In this document: piece by piece, positions 16,675 to 23,627 of the stretch
Layout: every line of letters starts with the position of its first letter
Position numbering within the stretch: position 1 is the first letter of the stretch
DNA from: Candidatus Nanopusillus sp.
Lineage (GTDB): Archaea > Nanobdellota > Nanobdellia > Nanobdellales > Nanobdellaceae
DNA: 32,000 nucleotides
NCBI GenBank assembly: GCA_046533775.1
Contig: JAWDOO010000002.1
Coordinates: forward strand, 71,127 to 103,126
Direction: 5' to 3'
Notes under the pieces: model-generated
Databases searched by the model: none
Told to the model about the DNA's origin: nothing
What the model saw: the letters and a program-made list of their open reading frames with translations, nothing else
Made by a program: the position numbers and the translations under genes

Positions 16675-17274
16675 ATGAATGAAAATTTATTAGAATTCTT
16701 AAATAGTTTAAATATTTATTCAAAGATTACATATATATCAAGTATTTTGGGTTTTTCATCATATTTATTATTTATAATTCTCTCTTTTTTCTCTACATAT
16801 AATACTACTATGAGTCCATTTACATTAATATTTAGTCCATCTCTATCCTTATCCATATTATATATTTTCCTTAATTTAATTAATCTAGGGACAATTTTAA
16901 TTATATTAATTATTATTTCTATTATTTCATATTTTATATCTATAGAATACTTAAAGAAGATATTTAGGATAATTGAAAAAATAATAAATAAAGAATATTA
17001 TCCAAATAATTTGTTTTCAATGATATATATAGGAATACTAATATCTATTTTTATTACATATCCTGGTTTAATAATTATTGGTATATCAAATTATTTAATA
17101 TTAAAGAAATTATATAATGTTGTTGTTCATTTAAATAATCAAAATATAAATAAATATTTTAAAATATCTATAATGGGGTCTATATTTCCATTATTATTAA
17201 TATTATCATTTATTGGATTTTATTATATTAATAGAGAATTAAGTAAATATAATTTAAATAGTAATTCTTTTTAA
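16675..17274 (+). CDS. Hypothetical multi-pass membrane protein (199 aa)
   Basis: Several 20-aa hydrophobic segments and no recognisable motif. Confidence 0.5.
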   Translation: MNENLLEFLNSLNIYSKITYISSILGFSSYLLFIILSFFSTYNTTMSPFTLIFSPSLSLSILYIFLNLINLGTILIILIIISIISYFISIEYLKKIFRIIEKIINKEYYPNNLFSMIYIGILISIFITYPGLIIIGISNYLILKKLYNVVVHLNNQNINKYFKISIMGSIFPLLLILSFIGFYYINRELSKYNLNSNSF

Positions 17275-17793
17275 TTCTTCTTCTATTTCTTTTAATTTTT
17301 CTCCCAAATTATATATAGAATCTCTTCCCTTTACAGTTATTAAATTTCTATCTACTACATAATCTGCATTTGTTACTAATTTTACTCCAAAATCTGGAAA
17401 AAATTTTAAATATTGCGGATATTCATCATAATTATATGTTATTGTTCTTCCAGCCAATAAACCAGATTTTAAAAAAGCTATTTGGGATAGAGAAGATAAT
17501 ATAACTGTCCTATATGAATTTATAAATCTTGTAAATATTGCTTGAGATTCTACACTTAAAAATTCTTTGTATCCTTCATCAGAAATATATATTAACCTAT
17601 CAAAATGGTTTTCTTTCATTAAAAATATTTCATGTATATCAAAATCTGGTAATACTTTACTTTTATATTTTCCTATTCCAATTTTTCTATTTTTTATAGC
17701 AATATATGTTCTACCATCCAATATATCTAAAAAGTTAAAAAGATCGTCTTCATCAAATCCTTTGCTTGATAATATTATTAAATTCATTTTCAT
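17254..17793 (-). CDS. DJ-1/PfpI-fold protein lacking the nucleophile Cys
   Basis: 179 aa, alignable by eye along its length to PfpI: MNLIILSSKGFDEDDL, then TVILSSLSQIAFLKSGLLAGRTIT against the PfpI block ASICHGPQILISAGVLRGRKGT, then YVVDRNLITVKG. The Cys-His pair is replaced by Ser-Leu. Confidence 0.55.
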   Translation of the reverse strand: MKMNLIILSSKGFDEDDLFNFLDILDGRTYIAIKNRKIGIGKYKSKVLPDFDIHEIFLMKENHFDRLIYISDEGYKEFLSVESQAIFTRFINSYRTVILSSLSQIAFLKSGLLAGRTITYNYDEYPQYLKFFPDFGVKLVTNADYVVDRNLITVKGRDSIYNLGEKLKEIEEELKRITI

Positions 17794-17857
17794 TAGATAT
17801 ATAAGTATCTTCTAATATATTAAAATTTTTATTTTCCAACATCTTTTAAATTGATAT

Positions 17858-19540
17858 ATGCAAAACATAAAAATTGATGATTTAAGGAATGAAAATATTG
17901 AGGATAATAAACATAAAATATTAGAAATAAAACTTATATTAGATAATCCAAATATAAAAATGGAACAAATATATTTTTGGCTTGTAGATTTTATTAGAGA
18001 TAGTTTAAAAATGGATATTAATAAATTATCAGATGATTTTACATCATCTGTTGCATCTTCATTTTTTGGAGAGATGGGTCAAAGATTATCAAATGTATTA
18101 AATAATGCAAGATCATTGGCAGAATTAATTAATGCATTGACAAGAACAATTATTTCTATTTTAAATGAATATAAACAGCTTTATTCAATATATGTTTTAT
18201 ACGAAAATTTATTATCAAAAAATAAAGAAGAAGCTATTGCAAGTTATACAGAATTAAAAGATAGATGGTTATCTTATGTTGATTCTACAAGGGGTGCAGG
18301 TGCTTTAAGGAATTTACAAACATCAAGGTTTCCAAGTATTGTAGATCTATTTTTTCTAGCAGAGCTAAAATCTGAATTAGAAAAACTTAAGAATAAAAAA
18401 TTAATAGGAGAAGAATTATATAATGAATTATTTAATAATCAAGAAAATACTGTTCCAAGAGATTTAAATGAATTATTTAATAATGGGATAATAAATAGAA
18501 GAATATATAATTTATTAAATAGTAGATTAATAGATTTTTATAGTTGGCTTGAAAATAATAAAAAAGTTTTATATGATAGAATAATTTTATTAAAATCTTA
18601 TTTAAAACATGAATTAAGCTCATTATTATATTATGTTGAATTTGCAAAACCATATTTTAAATTTGCAAGAAAATTATTACAAAGTCCTGATCAACCTGTA
18701 GATGTTGTAAATGCATTTGAAACAGCAATTATAAATATTTCATTAATAGCAAATCAAAATGAGATAAAAGTAAAAGAATATAACGAAAAAGAAGGAAAAG
18801 AAATAGAAAAGTCTTATATACCATTATATGAAATTGATATGAAAGCAAGAGCAATACCCACTGTAGTTGGAAGAACAGATTCATATACAAGAATGTATTC
18901 TTTCTTAGGAAGGATTGATATAGTACTTAGAGCATATTTAGTTGAAAAAGAAGAATATGATTCAATAATAATAAATCAGGAAAGTGAAGATTTAACATAT
19001 ATAACTGGATTAACAGATGATTATATAAAAAGTATGTCTGATTTAATTTTAGAAACATTTTTATATGATATAATAAAAAGTGATGAAAATTTATTAAAAA
19101 TAGTTGCTGAAAAATCTAATGTAAAACCAGAAGAAATAAAAAATGACCCTTATAAAATAAGATGGACAAGGGAACTTTTAGAAGAATTAGAAAAAGATGA
19201 AAAAATAAAAAGAGCATTATCAAGTATTACATGGATAAAAAAATATCTTGAAAGTGAAAAAAAAGAGAAAAAAGAAGATAAAAAGGAGGAAAAGAAAGAA
19301 GAAAAAAAAGAATCAAGTATTTCATTAATATTCCCAAATTTAGGAAATATTATAATATGGTTACTTAAATTTATATCAACTTTTGGCAAAGATATCACAA
19401 GTATTGAAAAAAATATAAAAAAGAAAAATATTGAAGAGGAAAAAAAATCAATAATTGATGAAACAAAAGAAAAGACAATAGATACTGCATGGAAAATATA
19501 TATGACATTTAAAAAGACATTCGGTATGTTAAATTATTAA
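17858..19540 (+). CDS. Large orphan protein (560 aa), mostly helical, with a K/E run and a C-proximal hydrophobic segment
   Basis: Uninterrupted 1.7-kb ORF with no motif I recognise. ESEKKEKKEDKKEEKKEEKKE is followed by SSISLIFPNLGNIIIWLLKFISTFG and then another charged helix. The next gene starts 24 bp downstream on the same strand. Confidence 0.65.
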   Translation: MQNIKIDDLRNENIEDNKHKILEIKLILDNPNIKMEQIYFWLVDFIRDSLKMDINKLSDDFTSSVASSFFGEMGQRLSNVLNNARSLAELINALTRTIISILNEYKQLYSIYVLYENLLSKNKEEAIASYTELKDRWLSYVDSTRGAGALRNLQTSRFPSIVDLFFLAELKSELEKLKNKKLIGEELYNELFNNQENTVPRDLNELFNNGIINRRIYNLLNSRLIDFYSWLENNKKVLYDRIILLKSYLKHELSSLLYYVEFAKPYFKFARKLLQSPDQPVDVVNAFETAIINISLIANQNEIKVKEYNEKEGKEIEKSYIPLYEIDMKARAIPTVVGRTDSYTRMYSFLGRIDIVLRAYLVEKEEYDSIIINQESEDLTYITGLTDDYIKSMSDLILETFLYDIIKSDENLLKIVAEKSNVKPEEIKNDPYKIRWTRELLEELEKDEKIKRALSSITWIKKYLESEKKEKKEDKKEEKKEEKKESSISLIFPNLGNIIIWLLKFISTFGKDITSIEKNIKKKNIEEEKKSIIDETKEKTIDTAWKIYMTFKKTFGMLNY

Positions 19541-19564
19541 ATTCAGAAATATCATTATATATAA

Positions 19565-21619
19565 ATGGATAATGAAGATAAAAAATATCCAAAAGAATTA
19601 TATAATAGAAGGATATCTACTAGCACAAGTCCTCAAAACGTAAATCAATTACAAGAATATTTATCAAAAATATCTGCTGGATATCCTGGAGTAGAAATAC
19701 AAACATTTAATTTTTCCGGACAATGGTCAAGAATACCAAGGCAAATATTTGAAGAAATTGCAAGAAATGCTAAGATAAATAATGTAGAAGTTACAATTCA
19801 TGCTCCTGAACAAGATTTTCAATTACCTGCGACAGATCAAAAATTGAATATAGAAGAAAATAATATAAAACAAATGGCCTATAAAGCATCAGTAATATTG
19901 GAGAGTGCAGAGATAATGTCAAAAATTTATGGAGAACCAATTAAAGTAAACATGCATGCCGGGGATGTTGCGCTAACAGAATGGGATGAAGATTTTGAAA
20001 GGAGATTAAAAGATGAATTATTAAAGAATGAAGAATTTAGAAAATCTTTTGCAGAAAAATTATATAGATTGGGATATATAACGTCAGAACAATATGGTAT
20101 ATTAACTAGTAAAAATATTGATAGAGAAACATTGGAAAAGAATGTACCATCATGGGCTTTTGCAAAACAGGAAGCCGCATATATTCATTTAAATGGAAAT
20201 TACGAATATATGGGATCTGTTATGCCTGGAAGATATTTATCTGGTGCTGTAGAAAGGGCAAGAAAACTTAATGTTGTTGATGAAATTTATAAAGAAAATG
20301 AAAAAGTTTGGATGAATATATTTAATGATATTGATAAGGATTTTAATGCAATAAAAAGATTATTAAATAACAATTACTTAATAACCTATTTTGGATATAG
20401 TACTGTAGATCAGGAAAAAATAGGAGAATTTTTATACGATCTAAAAAGATATAGATCATTTTTAGAAAAAGTAAAAGAATATATTGATACAATAGAGGAT
20501 AATATAAATGATATTGCAGATGAAAATTTAAGAAATGCCGCAAAAAATAGGATATCACAATATAAACAATATCTTGAAGAAAACTTGAAGAATATAGAAA
20601 ATTATGAATATGAAATATCAAAATTTGCAAAAGAAGTTGTACAAAACAATAATAGTCCTACATATAGAGACTATTTTAGGGATAAAATGTTTGATTTTAT
20701 AAATAATATAAGTTCATCTATAACAAACACAGATCATTTATTGTCCCAACTAAAAAATACGGTATTTTCAGAATTTCCAATCCCAATTGTAAAACCATAT
20801 CAAGAAGTTGCAACAAAAACAGCTCCAGAAGTAATAGCTGAAGGAGTTAGAATGCTAATTGAAAGGGAAATAAGTAGAAATCCAAATGAATGGTATAAGG
20901 ATTTTGATAAATATTTAAGTTATATAAATATTGAAGAATCATATCCTGGAGCACCCGCTACAAGACCAGATATATGGAAGAAATTATTAAATAATATAAG
21001 GGAAGAAGTAAAAAAAGTAATAGAAGAATATATGGAAAAATATCCTCAATTAAAAGATGAAATTGAGAAAAAATATGGTAGTGTAGATAATTTTGTTAAA
21101 GAAAGAATAGGAGCTACATTAGATGTTGGACATATAAAAATGTTTGAAAAATATGGATATAAGAAAGAAGATATATTAAAATGGGTTGAGGAAATTAAAC
21201 CAGAAATTAGGCATTTACATGTCCATGAATCACAAGCTGGAGAAGATACACATTTAGCATTAGGAATGGGATGGGATGACATTATTGCATCAGAATTAGA
21301 AAAACTTAGAGATATATTGGAGAATAAAAAAGTAACAATTGTACATGAGCCTGGTGGATATTATGCTAATAAATTTAATACAATGTATGGAAATGAATAT
21401 TATAATTTATTAGCAGGTGCTGGACCTTATAATATATATGGAAATATTATAAACCAATTTAATACAATGTTACCATATGGAGGAACACAAGTTATTCCAG
21501 AATATGTTCAATATACAAGATATTCTCCATATTCTATTTCAATATTCTCACAATTACCAATAGATCTTGGAGGAACAAGTAAAAGACAAGAAACATTTTC
21601 TGGAGAAAAAGCTGATTAA
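19565..21619 (+). CDS. Endonuclease IV / xylose-isomerase-like TIM-barrel protein with a ~300-aa internal helical insertion and a Y/N/G-rich tail
   Basis: Candidate ligand series in order: TIHAP (H79), NMHAG (H131), NIEESYPG (E457), LDVGH (D520, H523), HLHVHE (H550/552), GEDTH (D561, H563) and VHEPGG (E595). Residues ~140-450 are coiled-coil-like. Confidence 0.6.
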   Translation: MDNEDKKYPKELYNRRISTSTSPQNVNQLQEYLSKISAGYPGVEIQTFNFSGQWSRIPRQIFEEIARNAKINNVEVTIHAPEQDFQLPATDQKLNIEENNIKQMAYKASVILESAEIMSKIYGEPIKVNMHAGDVALTEWDEDFERRLKDELLKNEEFRKSFAEKLYRLGYITSEQYGILTSKNIDRETLEKNVPSWAFAKQEAAYIHLNGNYEYMGSVMPGRYLSGAVERARKLNVVDEIYKENEKVWMNIFNDIDKDFNAIKRLLNNNYLITYFGYSTVDQEKIGEFLYDLKRYRSFLEKVKEYIDTIEDNINDIADENLRNAAKNRISQYKQYLEENLKNIENYEYEISKFAKEVVQNNNSPTYRDYFRDKMFDFINNISSSITNTDHLLSQLKNTVFSEFPIPIVKPYQEVATKTAPEVIAEGVRMLIEREISRNPNEWYKDFDKYLSYINIEESYPGAPATRPDIWKKLLNNIREEVKKVIEEYMEKYPQLKDEIEKKYGSVDNFVKERIGATLDVGHIKMFEKYGYKKEDILKWVEEIKPEIRHLHVHESQAGEDTHLALGMGWDDIIASELEKLRDILENKKVTIVHEPGGYYANKFNTMYGNEYYNLLAGAGPYNIYGNIINQFNTMLPYGGTQVIPEYVQYTRYSPYSISIFSQLPIDLGGTSKRQETFSGEKAD

Positions 21620-21651: not shown

Positions 21652-23007
21652 ATGAACATAATAGATAAAATAATCTCATACTTACCAACTGTTGAAGAAC
21701 CAAAAAAATTATTATCTTTAAGAGAAAAAGTATATAATACATTACTAGTAGTTGCATTATATACTGTTTTAGCATCAATACCTTTATTTGGAATATCTCC
21801 AGAAGTTTCTGCAAGATTAGAACAATTTTTATGGTTATTTGGATCAAATTTAGGAACCTTAGCAAGTGTTGGAATTGCTCCAGTAGTTGTTGCTGGAATT
21901 TTTATGCAATTATTGGTTGGTCTTGGAATAATAAATATTGATATAAATACTGATGAAGGAAAAACAAAATTTGACAATTATGCAAGATTTATTGCATTAA
22001 TATTTATTATAATAGAAAGTATAATTTTAATTGTAAGTGGAAATATATCACCAAATATATTTTTAGGAATAGATCCAATAATTTTATATATTATTTTATT
22101 TTTACAATTATTTATTGGAGGACTTATTATATTATTATTAGATGATTTTTCATATAAATATGGAATTACATCTGGAATAAATATTATTATTTTAACTACA
22201 ATAAGTATTGCATTAGCTTTAAGATTATTCAATCCACTTTCTCCCCCATCTAGTTCACCAAGTCTATTTGCACAACCAACAGGTTATATACCAGAAGGAA
22301 TTTTATATCTATCACAGGGGAATATTAATTTGGGTCTTGCATTTTTATTTGCTGCAATGATTACAATTGGAATATTAATATTTGCAGTATATTTACAATC
22401 ACTAAAAATAGAAGTTCCATTATTATATTTAAATATTAATGGAGAAATTGTTAAATATCCAATACAATTATTATATACTTCTGTAATTCCTGCAATATTT
22501 ATTTATGCATTAATAATTGAATTACAATCTTTATTTGGTTTTAATCCAAATAATCCAATTGTTCAACTATTATCTCCACCAAATTTAATAATAAATATTG
22601 GACAGTTTGGAATTGATTATTTATATGTACCATTCAATATATTTCATATAATATTTTATTTTCTATTATTTACAATTGGCGGAATGTTTATATCTAAATT
22701 CTGGATATATTCTACAGGTTTAGATCCGAAAAATTTGGCAAATTATTTAACAAGCAATCCAAATTCTCCATTATATACAAGAGATCCAAGAATTGTAGAA
22801 GATATGTTAAGAAAATATATAGATCCCATAGGATATTTATCTGGATTTTTAATGGGACTACTAGCATCTTTGGGGGATATATTAAGTTCTGCAGTATCTG
22901 GGGTAAGCATATTATTATTAATAGTAATAGCTGGGCAGATATATAATGATTTGAAGAAAGTAGATGCATTATATTTAATACCATTAATTGGAAAATATCT
23001 AAAATGA
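21652..23007 (+). CDS. secY: Preprotein translocase subunit SecY
   Basis: 451 aa with 10 TM-like segments. The N-terminal LPTVEEPKKLLSLREKVYNTLLVVALYTVLASIPLFGI is typical of archaeal SecY/Sec61alpha. Confidence 0.9.
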   Translation: MNIIDKIISYLPTVEEPKKLLSLREKVYNTLLVVALYTVLASIPLFGISPEVSARLEQFLWLFGSNLGTLASVGIAPVVVAGIFMQLLVGLGIINIDINTDEGKTKFDNYARFIALIFIIIESIILIVSGNISPNIFLGIDPIILYIILFLQLFIGGLIILLLDDFSYKYGITSGINIIILTTISIALALRLFNPLSPPSSSPSLFAQPTGYIPEGILYLSQGNINLGLAFLFAAMITIGILIFAVYLQSLKIEVPLLYLNINGEIVKYPIQLLYTSVIPAIFIYALIIELQSLFGFNPNNPIVQLLSPPNLIINIGQFGIDYLYVPFNIFHIIFYFLLFTIGGMFISKFWIYSTGLDPKNLANYLTSNPNSPLYTRDPRIVEDMLRKYIDPIGYLSGFLMGLLASLGDILSSAVSGVSILLLIVIAGQIYNDLKKVDALYLIPLIGKYLK

Positions 23008-23627
23008 TAGATTTAATATTCTTCTATGTACTACTTTTAGTTATATTAGTAAATATAGTAATAAAAATAATTGAAAGAAAGACTGGAATAAGGGAACATC
23101 AGAAGAAATTACAAGAAATACAGAAAAAGTATATTGAAAGCTTTAAATCTGGAAAACTAGAAGAATTAAATAATATTATGGATGAATTTACAAAAATATA
23201 TTCAAAGATAATGAAACATACAATGATTGTTACCATATTTGGAATTATTATATTAATTTTTATTATTTTTGGATTTCAATCCGGATTTTATATTACAAAT
23301 ATAAATAATGCAACAAATATATTGATAACAAATCCAATATTATATAATCAAGATTTTGCTATATATTATAATAATAGTTTTCTAGGTTTTTATCATGCAA
23401 ATTACAATATAATAAATTTAAATGGAACATATGAAACAAAATTATTATCTGTAAATGTTATAACAAATACATTACCATTTAAATTACCAATAATAAATAT
23501 AAATTGGCTAAGTCCCTTACTTCTATATATAATATTATATATTTTAGTCCAGATTTCTTTATTAATATTTAATATTATTTACTCAAGATTTATAAAAAAA
23601 TCTAAAATAGATAATAAAAATGGCTAA
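23004..23627 (+). CDS. DUF106 / EMC3-YidC-like membrane insertase homologue with an Asn-rich inserted loop
   Basis: TM1, then a coiled coil (REHQKKLQEIQKKYIESFK...), then TM2 ... PFKLPIININWLSPLLLYIIL (TM3). It occupies the conserved archaeal position downstream of secY and upstream of rpl34e. Confidence 0.55.
   Translation: MIDLIFFYVLLLVILVNIVIKIIERKTGIREHQKKLQEIQKKYIESFKSGKLEELNNIMDEFTKIYSKIMKHTMIVTIFGIIILIFIIFGFQSGFYITNINNATNILITNPILYNQDFAIYYNNSFLGFYHANYNIINLNGTYETKLLSVNVITNTLPFKLPIININWLSPLLLYIILYILVQISLLIFNIIYSRFIKKSKIDNKNG

Follow-up and report, generated by a model that had tools for sequence, protein, structure and literature searches.

A 32,000-nucleotide stretch of Candidatus Nanopusillus sp. 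DNA (Nanobdellota, Nanoarchaeales, Nanopusillaceae; contig JAWDOO010000002.1, positions 71,127 to 103,126), hereafter the window, raises the question of what two large adjacent genes, here called A and B, encode and whether they belong together. Gene A (17858..19540, + strand, 560 aa) and gene B (19565..21619, + strand, 684 aa) both have an ATG start in the open reading frame (ORF) list and are separated by a 24-nt spacer (19541..19564, + strand), exactly as placed by a first-pass annotation of the same DNA, and together they fill 11.8% of the window, in line with its estimate of over 11%. Both are genuine genes and not chance ORFs, since stops make up about 9% of random codons at the window's G+C content of about 23%, so that by arithmetic a frame would stay open over 560 or 684 codons with a probability below 1e-23, and since each has full-length homologs of similar size. 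The product of gene A is 100% identical to NCBI RXQ68_01340, for which the homology search returned 127 homologs, and the product of gene B is 100% identical to NCBI RXQ68_01345. As detailed below, B is a novel form within a familiar enzyme superfamily and A represents a family without known relatives.

Conserved linkage of genes A and B

A relative of A was found in 492 species-level genomes in a scan with each GTDB species represented by a single genome, and an exhaustive profile search gave 903 clusters at 50% identity. Eighty A loci were fetched out of the 492 genomes and 10 of them end too near A to be judged, leaving 70 informative loci. All 80 listed loci are labelled Nanoarchaeota, Woesearchaeota, Pacearchaeota or just 'archaeon'. 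A further homolog of A, P0120, is filed as 'Patescibacteria group bacterium' and is probably from a mis-binned contig. Full-length members of the A family, among the matches listed, are nearly all 450-560 aa long and have a single architecture. Identity to the A of the window is 67% in YN1, 59% in Nanobdella aerobiophila, about 40% in a deeper Nanopusillaceae group and 24-31% in Woese- and Pacearchaeota. The genes had been called lineage-specific, which holds for A, limited to one phylum though widespread there, and fails for B, which belongs to the very large superfamily PF01261.

Of the 70 informative loci 57, including genomes in which A is only 24-30% identical to that of the window, have a B homolog downstream of A in the same orientation. 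It directly adjoins A (1-31 nt) in the Nanopusillaceae and in two Woesearchaeota (L005 and L051), with a spacer of 22-31 nt in Nanopusillaceae other than that of the window and of 1 nt in L005 and L010. At 45 loci B is found 530-1757 nt downstream of A with one intervening same-strand ORF, here called X. Ranked by retention, B is the top neighbour of A (62 of 85 loci), followed by a nucleotidyltransferase (44) and GluRS (32). The flanking genes differ between orders, being TrpRS, a DJ-1/PfpI-like gene and SecY in Nanopusillaceae and GluRS, LspA and a small coiled-coil ORF in Woese- and Pacearchaeota. The same-strand order of A then B is thus kept across distant genomes while the flanks change, as in a neighbourhood module. 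The A-B linkage is conserved, and the neighbourhood comparison upholds the linkage that the first-pass annotation had put forward. That the two genes are also functionally linked is highly probable.

The proposal of a module of two components was too narrow for most Woese- and Pacearchaeota, in which the order is A, X, B and nucleotidyltransferase. X is a disordered protein of about 200 aa (165-245 aa; for example L028:7445-8083, also L014, L017, L061 and L063) that is of low complexity and poorly conserved, with a K/E-rich N-terminus, and only 13 copies cluster in jackhmmer. A central '[AS]P[VSA]LE.[IM]A'-like motif is shared by 9 of 46 copies, where 0.02 would be expected, and the C-terminus is basic and aromatic, often with '[LDN]PF' ahead of it. 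No Pfam match was found for X. The nucleotidyltransferase, of the Pol-beta superfamily and about 287 aa long (PF01909/PF18765, MntA/KNTase-like), follows B on the same strand at 41 loci (for example L046:10192-11055). Neither it nor X is encoded in the window. Because both are present in most Woese- and Pacearchaeota and absent here, the two-gene arrangement of the window is a reduced one. The cluster as a whole is conserved across Nanobdellota (formerly Nanoarchaeota: Nanopusillaceae, Woesearchaeales and Pacearchaeales), and the A-B pair is the version of it found in Nanopusillaceae.

The N-terminus of B might hold a remnant of a lost X gene, a doubtful idea. Residues 1-12 of B (19565-19600) start with '(E/D/K)KKYP(K/Q/N)EL' in the window, YN1, Nanobdella and L006, and this bears only a weak resemblance to the '..KKYEPKLP' at the C-terminus of some X proteins (compared for example in L063 and L072). 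A clue to a fusion, P0194, was set aside, its N-terminal extension having no Pfam match and being probably a gene-calling artefact. In Nanopusillus acidilobi (N. acidilobi), genes for a 'minimal NTase fused to HEPN' (Nps_01570/01575) are found elsewhere in the genome.

The metal site of B and the fold of A

B matches PF01261 (xylose-isomerase-like TIM barrel, AP_endonuc_2) with 35.8 bits against a gathering cut-off of 31.1 (E = 8.9e-9), PF01261 is annotated in nearly all B homologs, and B belongs to the xylose-isomerase-like TIM-barrel superfamily. The AlphaFold2 (AF2) model of B, with a predicted local distance difference test (pLDDT) of 75.6 and a predicted template modelling score (pTM) of 0.78, has its eight barrel strands in order at residues 18-20, 42-46, 75-79, 127-131, 453-457, 515-520, 548-554 and 591-595. 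Both the Pfam match and the modelled barrel with its insert agree with the initial description of B as a metal-site TIM barrel bearing an insertion. Residues 15-140 (19607..19984, + strand) form the N-terminal half-barrel, β1-β4, with ligands H79 and H131. Residues 406-606 (20780..21382, + strand) form the C-terminal half-barrel, β5-β8, with ligands E457, D520, H523, H552, D561, H563 and E595.

Between the two halves, in the β4-α4 loop, the model and the alignment place an insert of about 265 residues (141-405; 19985..20779, + strand), made of short helices, a β-hairpin and four long helices of 30-41 residues (237-266, 283-314, 320-360 and 365-403). The insert is present in all 20 aligned homologs, with varying length. 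Within it the MAFFT alignment of 20 sequences has N245 and W249 without exception, and their conservation is less clear in an alignment of 62. Since the β4-α4 loop of a TIM barrel lies on the catalytic face, the insert is expected to cap or extend the substrate site. Behind the barrel follows a C-terminal tail (residues 607-684; 21383..21616, + strand) that is predicted to be disordered, with pLDDT below 50, and that carries the motif F661-x3-P665-x2-L668-G669-G670 in 52-54 of 54 homologs (at least 96%) together with a conserved terminal 'FSG'. The motif equals the catalytic residues in conservation. Near-invariance in a segment predicted to be disordered is typical of a peptide folding onto a partner. 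B as a whole is acidic, with an isoelectric point (pI) of 5.2.

The ligand positions of B are conserved. All 59 homologs compared have His at positions 79 and 131, 55 of 56 have it at 523, and the core Glu-Asp-His-Glu ligands on β5-β8 (E457, D520, H552 and E595) are invariant (54/54 to 56/56). At positions 561/563 the pair is D..H (29 sequences) or H..E (23), always two ligand-type residues, a correlated swap that speaks for the reality of a third metal site, which a one-metal sugar isomerase would not need. For comparison, the nine ligands of the three zinc ions in the Endonuclease IV (EndoIV) Nfo, which we take to be H69, H109, E145, D179, H182, H216, D229, H231 and E261, were confirmed as residues present in the E. 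coli Nfo sequence, and B has ligand-type residues at nine positions that match them by motif and by strand position (β3-β8 ends), without significant alignment. H131 of B is set by hhalign on H109 of Nfo, in 'NFHPGS', in an alignment that is not significant. Because of these nine EndoIV-like positions B is read as a hydrolase with several metals, in all likelihood a phosphodiesterase, and not as a one-metal sugar isomerase, and as a prediction from sequence such hydrolase chemistry is put at a little below an even chance.

Among PDB sequences the sole TIM-barrel match of the B-family profile is MJ1311 of Methanocaldococcus jannaschii (PDB 3WQO), which aligns to the C-terminal half-barrel with E = 2.7e-10. 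The two proteins share the 'D-x-G-H' and 'H-x-H-x-x-D-N ... D-x-H-L-x-x-G-x-G' ligand motifs. MJ1311 is only 293 aa long, is without the β4-α4 insert and without the conserved disordered tail, and bears the PDB title 'uncharacterized protein'. We know of no A-like partner of MJ1311. Kiyonari et al. 2009 (PMC2770678) list it as the EndoIV homolog predicted for M. jannaschii.

EndoIV (Nfo, COG0648, arCOG01894) and B are of the same superfamily, PF01261 spanning both, and B differs from it in the 265-aa insert on the substrate face and in being more than twice as long. Membership of B in the EndoIV family itself was ruled out, there being no significant alignment to Nfo and no Nfo model among the NCBIfam results, which held only sub-threshold CbiR and FrlC. 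N. acidilobi encodes a separate canonical EndoIV, Nps_01285 (arCOG01894), detected by proteomics, beside its B ortholog Nps_03005, which is annotated as 'AP endonuclease family enzyme' and arCOG01895 (Wurch et al.). Because of this second enzyme B is, as far as sequence can tell, not the housekeeping apurinic/apyrimidinic (AP) endonuclease, and ordinary AP-site repair is an unlikely task for it. Public names vary: the Nanobdella ortholog of B is an 'AP endonuclease' at NCBI, and JGI names B a sugar phosphate isomerase/epimerase. The JGI names 'ribosomal protein L24E' for A homologs and 'gas vesicle protein' and 'glutaredoxin 2' for B homologs (P0003, P0124, P0171) look like artefacts of K/E-rich low complexity.

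Foldseek gave only partial barrel matches to B, namely TglH, DgpC, L-ribulose 3-epimerase, EndoIV (of Thermus and Staphylococcus) and the AP endonuclease of African swine fever virus. The top match, TglH, extends over about 187 columns only, with TM-scores of 0.13-0.26. Together with MbnB-MbnC, TglH-TglI represents the multinuclear iron oxidases (MNIO), which have a multi-metal TIM barrel of the same structural superfamily and an adjacent gene for a non-catalytic partner. B differs from them in matching PF01261 and not DUF692, and A is unrelated to TglI or MbnC. The DUF692 signature was not found in B by Pfam, nor was a DUF2063-type partner, the 79 aligned members of the A family having no Pfam match. 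Isomerases and epimerases of the xylose-isomerase fold (COG1082; L-ribulose and D-psicose 3-epimerases, DgpC) have the barrel and the core Glu-Asp-His-Glu site in common with B. The sugar-phosphate isomerases and epimerases of this fold use one metal and are without the extra His and Asp ligands, whereas B has additional conserved His at β3 and β4 and an Asp/His pair after β7, besides the helical insert, the tail and the partner.

A resembles no family that can be named, as had been said of it from the start: no match to a characterised family was found in Pfam, either for A alone or across the 79 members, in NCBIfam, in PDB sequences even by profile, in PADLOC or in PHROGs, and no arCOG is listed for its N. 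acidilobi ortholog Nps_03000 (Wurch et al.). Weak HTH_DeoR and Sta1 matches to residues 177-217 were rejected, being below cut-off and not recurrent across the family. A defence, phage or viral origin of A and B was ruled out as well. No relative of A was found in IMG/VR viral contigs, PADLOC gave nothing for A and only sub-threshold coiled-coil matches for B (LeoBC/LeoB, 13-18 bits), and PHROGs held nothing meaningful for either protein.

The AF2 model of A (pLDDT 87.9, pTM 0.75) has 60% helix and 16% strand with β-strands of up to 24 residues, and the initial impression of an almost entirely helical protein must be corrected to that extent. By DSSP and pLDDT the folded core comprises residues 1-464 (17858..19249, + strand), with an N-terminal β-hairpin, helices at 68-117, 123-148, 214-273 and 364-408 (50, 26, 60 and 45 residues) and long β-strands at 290-363. 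Residues Y39, K56, W137, D142, W230, Y248, L249, P265, Y266, L273 and G351 are invariant in 79 homologs, and among these many aromatic and charged residues no recognisable catalytic motif was found. Foldseek searches of the model against PDB and BFVD gave no match with E < 0.001, the best having E = 0.03 and a TM-score of at most 0.25. The nearest folds, EmrA, TolC-like channels and the BAR-PH of APPL1, have a general likeness only, very long helices beside long β-strands; with E of at least 0.03, TM-scores of at most 0.25 and a root-mean-square deviation above 15 Å these matches are not meaningful, and A is without signal peptide or membrane segment. As modelled, A has an α/β fold without known relatives among the searched libraries. 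No relation was found between A and the insert of B.

Behind the core of A lies the K/E-rich run ESEKKEKKEDKKEEKKEEKKE (residues 465-485; 19250..19312, + strand), in a linker predicted to be disordered, with pLDDT below 50 over residues 469-497. Its 21 residues are as counted initially, at a position about 5 nt off the estimate, and 73 of the 79 family members have a K/E run at least 6 residues long. The hydrophobic segment SSISLIFPNLGNIIIWLLKFISTFG that follows (residues 486-510; 19313..19387, + strand) has 25 residues, not 23, and is a Nanopusillus-expanded form of the family motif 'NPFxALF'. Elsewhere in the family it shrinks to this motif of 6-7 residues within a charged linker. Of the 79 members 44 have 'NPFxAL', where shuffled sequences would give 0.14, and a basic linker leads from it to the terminal helix. 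A hydrophobic part of such length that it resembles a membrane helix is peculiar to Nanopusillus. Its Kyte-Doolittle maximum over 19 residues is 1.75, a value above 1.6 is reached in only 9 of 79 members, and neither a transmembrane domain nor a signal peptide is listed for Nps_03000 or Nps_03005 (Wurch et al.). Judged by these hydropathy profiles, segment 486-510 is not a conserved transmembrane helix. The C-terminal helix (residues 513-554; 19394..19519, + strand; pLDDT 90-96) ends in a 'YxxYKKxHGM'-type motif, in the window WKIYMTFKKTFGM, which is found in 60 of 79 members with K552 and K553 nearly invariant.

Expression, constraint and flanking genes

The 64-nt divergent intergenic region (17794..17857) between gene A and the DJ-1/PfpI-like gene on the opposite strand is AT-rich, with TATA-like runs about 22-35 nt 5′ of the ATG of gene A, and is the putative promoter region of A-B. 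A sigma-70 promoter scan, a model unsuited to an archaeon, stayed at chance level (59 sites against 57 expected), as did the accompanying terminator scan, whose model is not applicable to archaea. Because the 24-nt spacer leaves no room for a separate TATA box and B recognition element (BRE) at about -26, a single transcript of A and B is plausible.

Compared with Nanobdella, identity is 59% for A and 47% for B, against 75% for SecY, 82% for TrpRS, 69% for TruD and 58% for YidC. The identities of A and B bear out the view that the two genes are under selection, and the lower values indicate that they are constrained but evolve faster than core machinery. In the Nanobdella transcriptome 735 of 736 coding sequences are reported to be expressed (bioRxiv 10.1101/2023.10.27.564410).

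The divergent upstream neighbour of A (17254..17793, - strand; 179 aa in the ORF list) is the DJ-1/PfpI-like gene, 70% identical to its Nanobdella ortholog. It is a retained neighbour of A in Nanopusillaceae and is also found near A in one Woesearchaeote (L005). The window copy has no Pfam match at E < 0.01; its N. acidilobi counterpart Nps_02995 is annotated as 'putative intracellular protease/amidase', arCOG00769 (Wurch et al.). Its 3′ end overlaps by 21 nt that of a convergent gene for a 199-aa multi-pass membrane protein (16675-17274, + strand). Downstream of B lie SecY (21652-23007) and a YidC/Oxa1-like gene of 207 aa (23004-23627), which overlap by 4 nt, an order common to Nanobdella and N. 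acidilobi. GC skew and AT skew both flip sign at about 17.8 kb, negative before and positive after, tracking the switch of coding strand upstream of A. Antisense ORFs of 78-95 aa within A and B (19150-19398, 20343-20630 and 21046-21282, all - strand) are shadow ORFs and not genes, the first mirroring the K/E run of A with FFSSFF repeats.

Two further neighbours of A were seen in Woese- and Pacearchaeota. An ORF of about 126 aa divergent from A (L049:5306-5686, - strand, and 25 other loci) begins with a stretch that looks amphipathic (consensus MGLFGKFKKK) and continues through a Ser-rich linker into a C-terminal coiled coil; it has no family match. LspA, the bacterial-type lipoprotein signal peptidase II (PF01252, E = 1e-24), is found near A at 19 loci (for example L016:4926-5315, - strand) and is an unusual gene for archaea.

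Function of the A-B pair

The reading favoured here is a soluble complex of an enzyme and a scaffold, and it is preferred tentatively, at somewhat short of an even chance. B would be the catalytic part, its helical insert capping the catalytic face. A would be non-catalytic, an elongated α/β protein whose disordered tail combines the K/E run with a short hydrophobic motif and, at its end, an amphipathic helix. Together with X in the genomes that have it, A would bind B via short motifs, via the insert or via the disordered C-terminal peptide of B, and A may so position or gate B on a polymeric substrate. Features of the docking type are at hand in the tail motif of B, at least 96% conserved, in the tail motifs of A, enriched over shuffles, and in the similar '[LDN]PF plus basic' ends of X. 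The insert and A are both confined to the phylum, which would fit the insert as a docking platform. A physical complex of A and B is given an even chance. Because there is no signal peptide and no conserved transmembrane segment, the products are presumably soluble and cytoplasmic. B may act on the ends of nucleic acids, on salvage substrates or on a phosphorylated sugar polymer; as context, nucleotide scavenging has been suggested as a theme of Pacearchaeota (Castelle et al. 2021, PMC8204110).

Several observations weigh against the favoured complex. On the side of the enzyme, canonical Nfo could not be aligned to the barrel of B with significance (hhalign; barrel-only hidden Markov model), the structure of B comes from 16 close sequences in a shallow alignment, a homology search with the B-family alignment having yielded Nanopusillaceae only as near relatives filled its candidate filter, and the β7-α7 loop with D561 and H563 is modelled at low confidence. 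On the side of expression, the orthologs of A and B were both undetected in the shotgun proteome of N. acidilobi, which covers about one third of the predicted proteins. On the side of linkage, 13 of the 70 informative loci are without B within about 5 kb of A and 6 others have 2-4 kb of unrelated genes (ABC transporters, U32 peptidase) between the two, so that tight adjacency is not obligatory, and the mirror-tree correlation of A and B (r = 0.84) is not above that of the nucleotidyltransferase control with A or B (0.83 and 0.81).

These last points, the loci with A and B apart and the mirror-tree signal no stronger than that of control neighbours, would equally be expected if the adjacency were inherited synteny without coupling, B being a stand-alone sugar-phosphate isomerase or epimerase and A an unrelated structural protein. 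The JGI and arCOG labels of B (sugar phosphate isomerase/epimerase or AP endonuclease family) and its fold matches to L-ribulose 3-epimerase and DgpC lean the same way. Such an explanation is nevertheless unlikely, as the same-strand order survives from Nanopusillaceae to Woese- and Pacearchaeota at 24-30% identity of A with the flanks replaced, B is the most often retained neighbour of A, and H79, H131, H523 and 561/563, superfluous to a one-metal isomerase, are at least 96% conserved.

The nine EndoIV-type ligand positions could alternatively mean that B is a repair AP endonuclease or 3′-diesterase of the EndoIV type, with A as a DNA-binding or clamp-like accessory and the nucleotidyltransferase of Woese- and Pacearchaeota as a repair partner. 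The listing of MJ1311, the nearest solved relative of B, among predicted EndoIV homologs (PMC2770678), the NCBI name of the Nanobdella ortholog and the Pol-beta-superfamily gene after B at 41 loci all accord with it. It is considered quite unlikely in view of the 656 proteins of N. acidilobi, which already include the expressed EndoIV Nps_01285 plus a glycosylase set. B has neither an NCBIfam Nfo match nor a significant Nfo alignment, it is acidic, its insert sits in a loop that by barrel topology would lie on the DNA-binding face of EndoIV, and the nucleotidyltransferase is of a generic MntA/KNTase-like kind and absent from the window.

That A sits in or on the membrane by its K/E run and a hydrophobic hairpin or amphipathic anchor was suggested by the first-pass annotation, and a membrane-anchored or host-contact module formed in this way is very improbable. 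It draws on the hydropathy of 1.75 over 19 residues in the window, on SecY and the YidC-like gene adjoining the pair in Nanopusillaceae and on the LspA and small divergent ORF with an amphipathic-looking N-terminus that often neighbour A in Woese- and Pacearchaeota. A hydrophobic stretch of transmembrane length is, however, found in only 9 of 79 members, the segment lies within the disordered linker, where the pLDDT of the model drops under 50, Wurch et al. record neither a transmembrane domain nor a signal peptide, and the SecY adjacency is limited to Nanopusillaceae.

Least probable of all is an MNIO-like oxidase of the MbnB/TglH kind that modifies a protein or peptide, with A as substrate-binding partner and X or the tail of B as substrate: MNIO enzymes depend on an adjacent partner protein and have short peptides as substrates, the best Foldseek match of B is TglH of the TglHI holoenzyme (8hi7_B, probability 0.97, E = 0.029), X is small and disordered with conserved short motifs and B has its conserved '...ELGG...' tail, but that match is no better than EndoIV (probability 0.94-0.96), B matches PF01261 and not DUF692, A is unrelated to known partner families, X is missing in Nanopusillaceae, and most Woese- and Pacearchaeota live without the oxygen that MNIO chemistry requires.

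Searches of the available literature for the locus tags, MJ1311, arCOG01895, 3WQO and DPANN papers found no description of A, B or the cluster, and public annotations of their homologs are 'hypothetical' or misleading. Returning to the enzyme-and-scaffold complex, its fullest form would make A, X and B an unrecognised machine specific to Nanobdellota, in which an insert-capped multi-metal phosphodiesterase is held, gated or targeted by a scaffold of new fold and a disordered adaptor through docking motifs and might process host-derived polymers, for example nucleic acids for salvage in cells unable to make their own nucleotides. This fullest form is given a modest chance, clearly below even.

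Conserved hypothetical proteins are common in DPANN genomes, which tempers the significance of the pair. A is nevertheless a confidently predicted fold without a solved or viral relative and B a common metal-barrel enzyme that has acquired a large insert and a putative docking tail. The A family may also serve as a marker of the phylum, and the pair can be tested in Nanobdella aerobiophila, which is cultivated. In Nanobdellota, as in other DPANN archaea, the genome is tiny and retains little besides information processing, and a 3.7-kb pair kept in hundreds of species is likely to have an indispensable role. The identity of its substrate could expose a lineage-specific step in the upkeep or feeding of host-dependent archaea.

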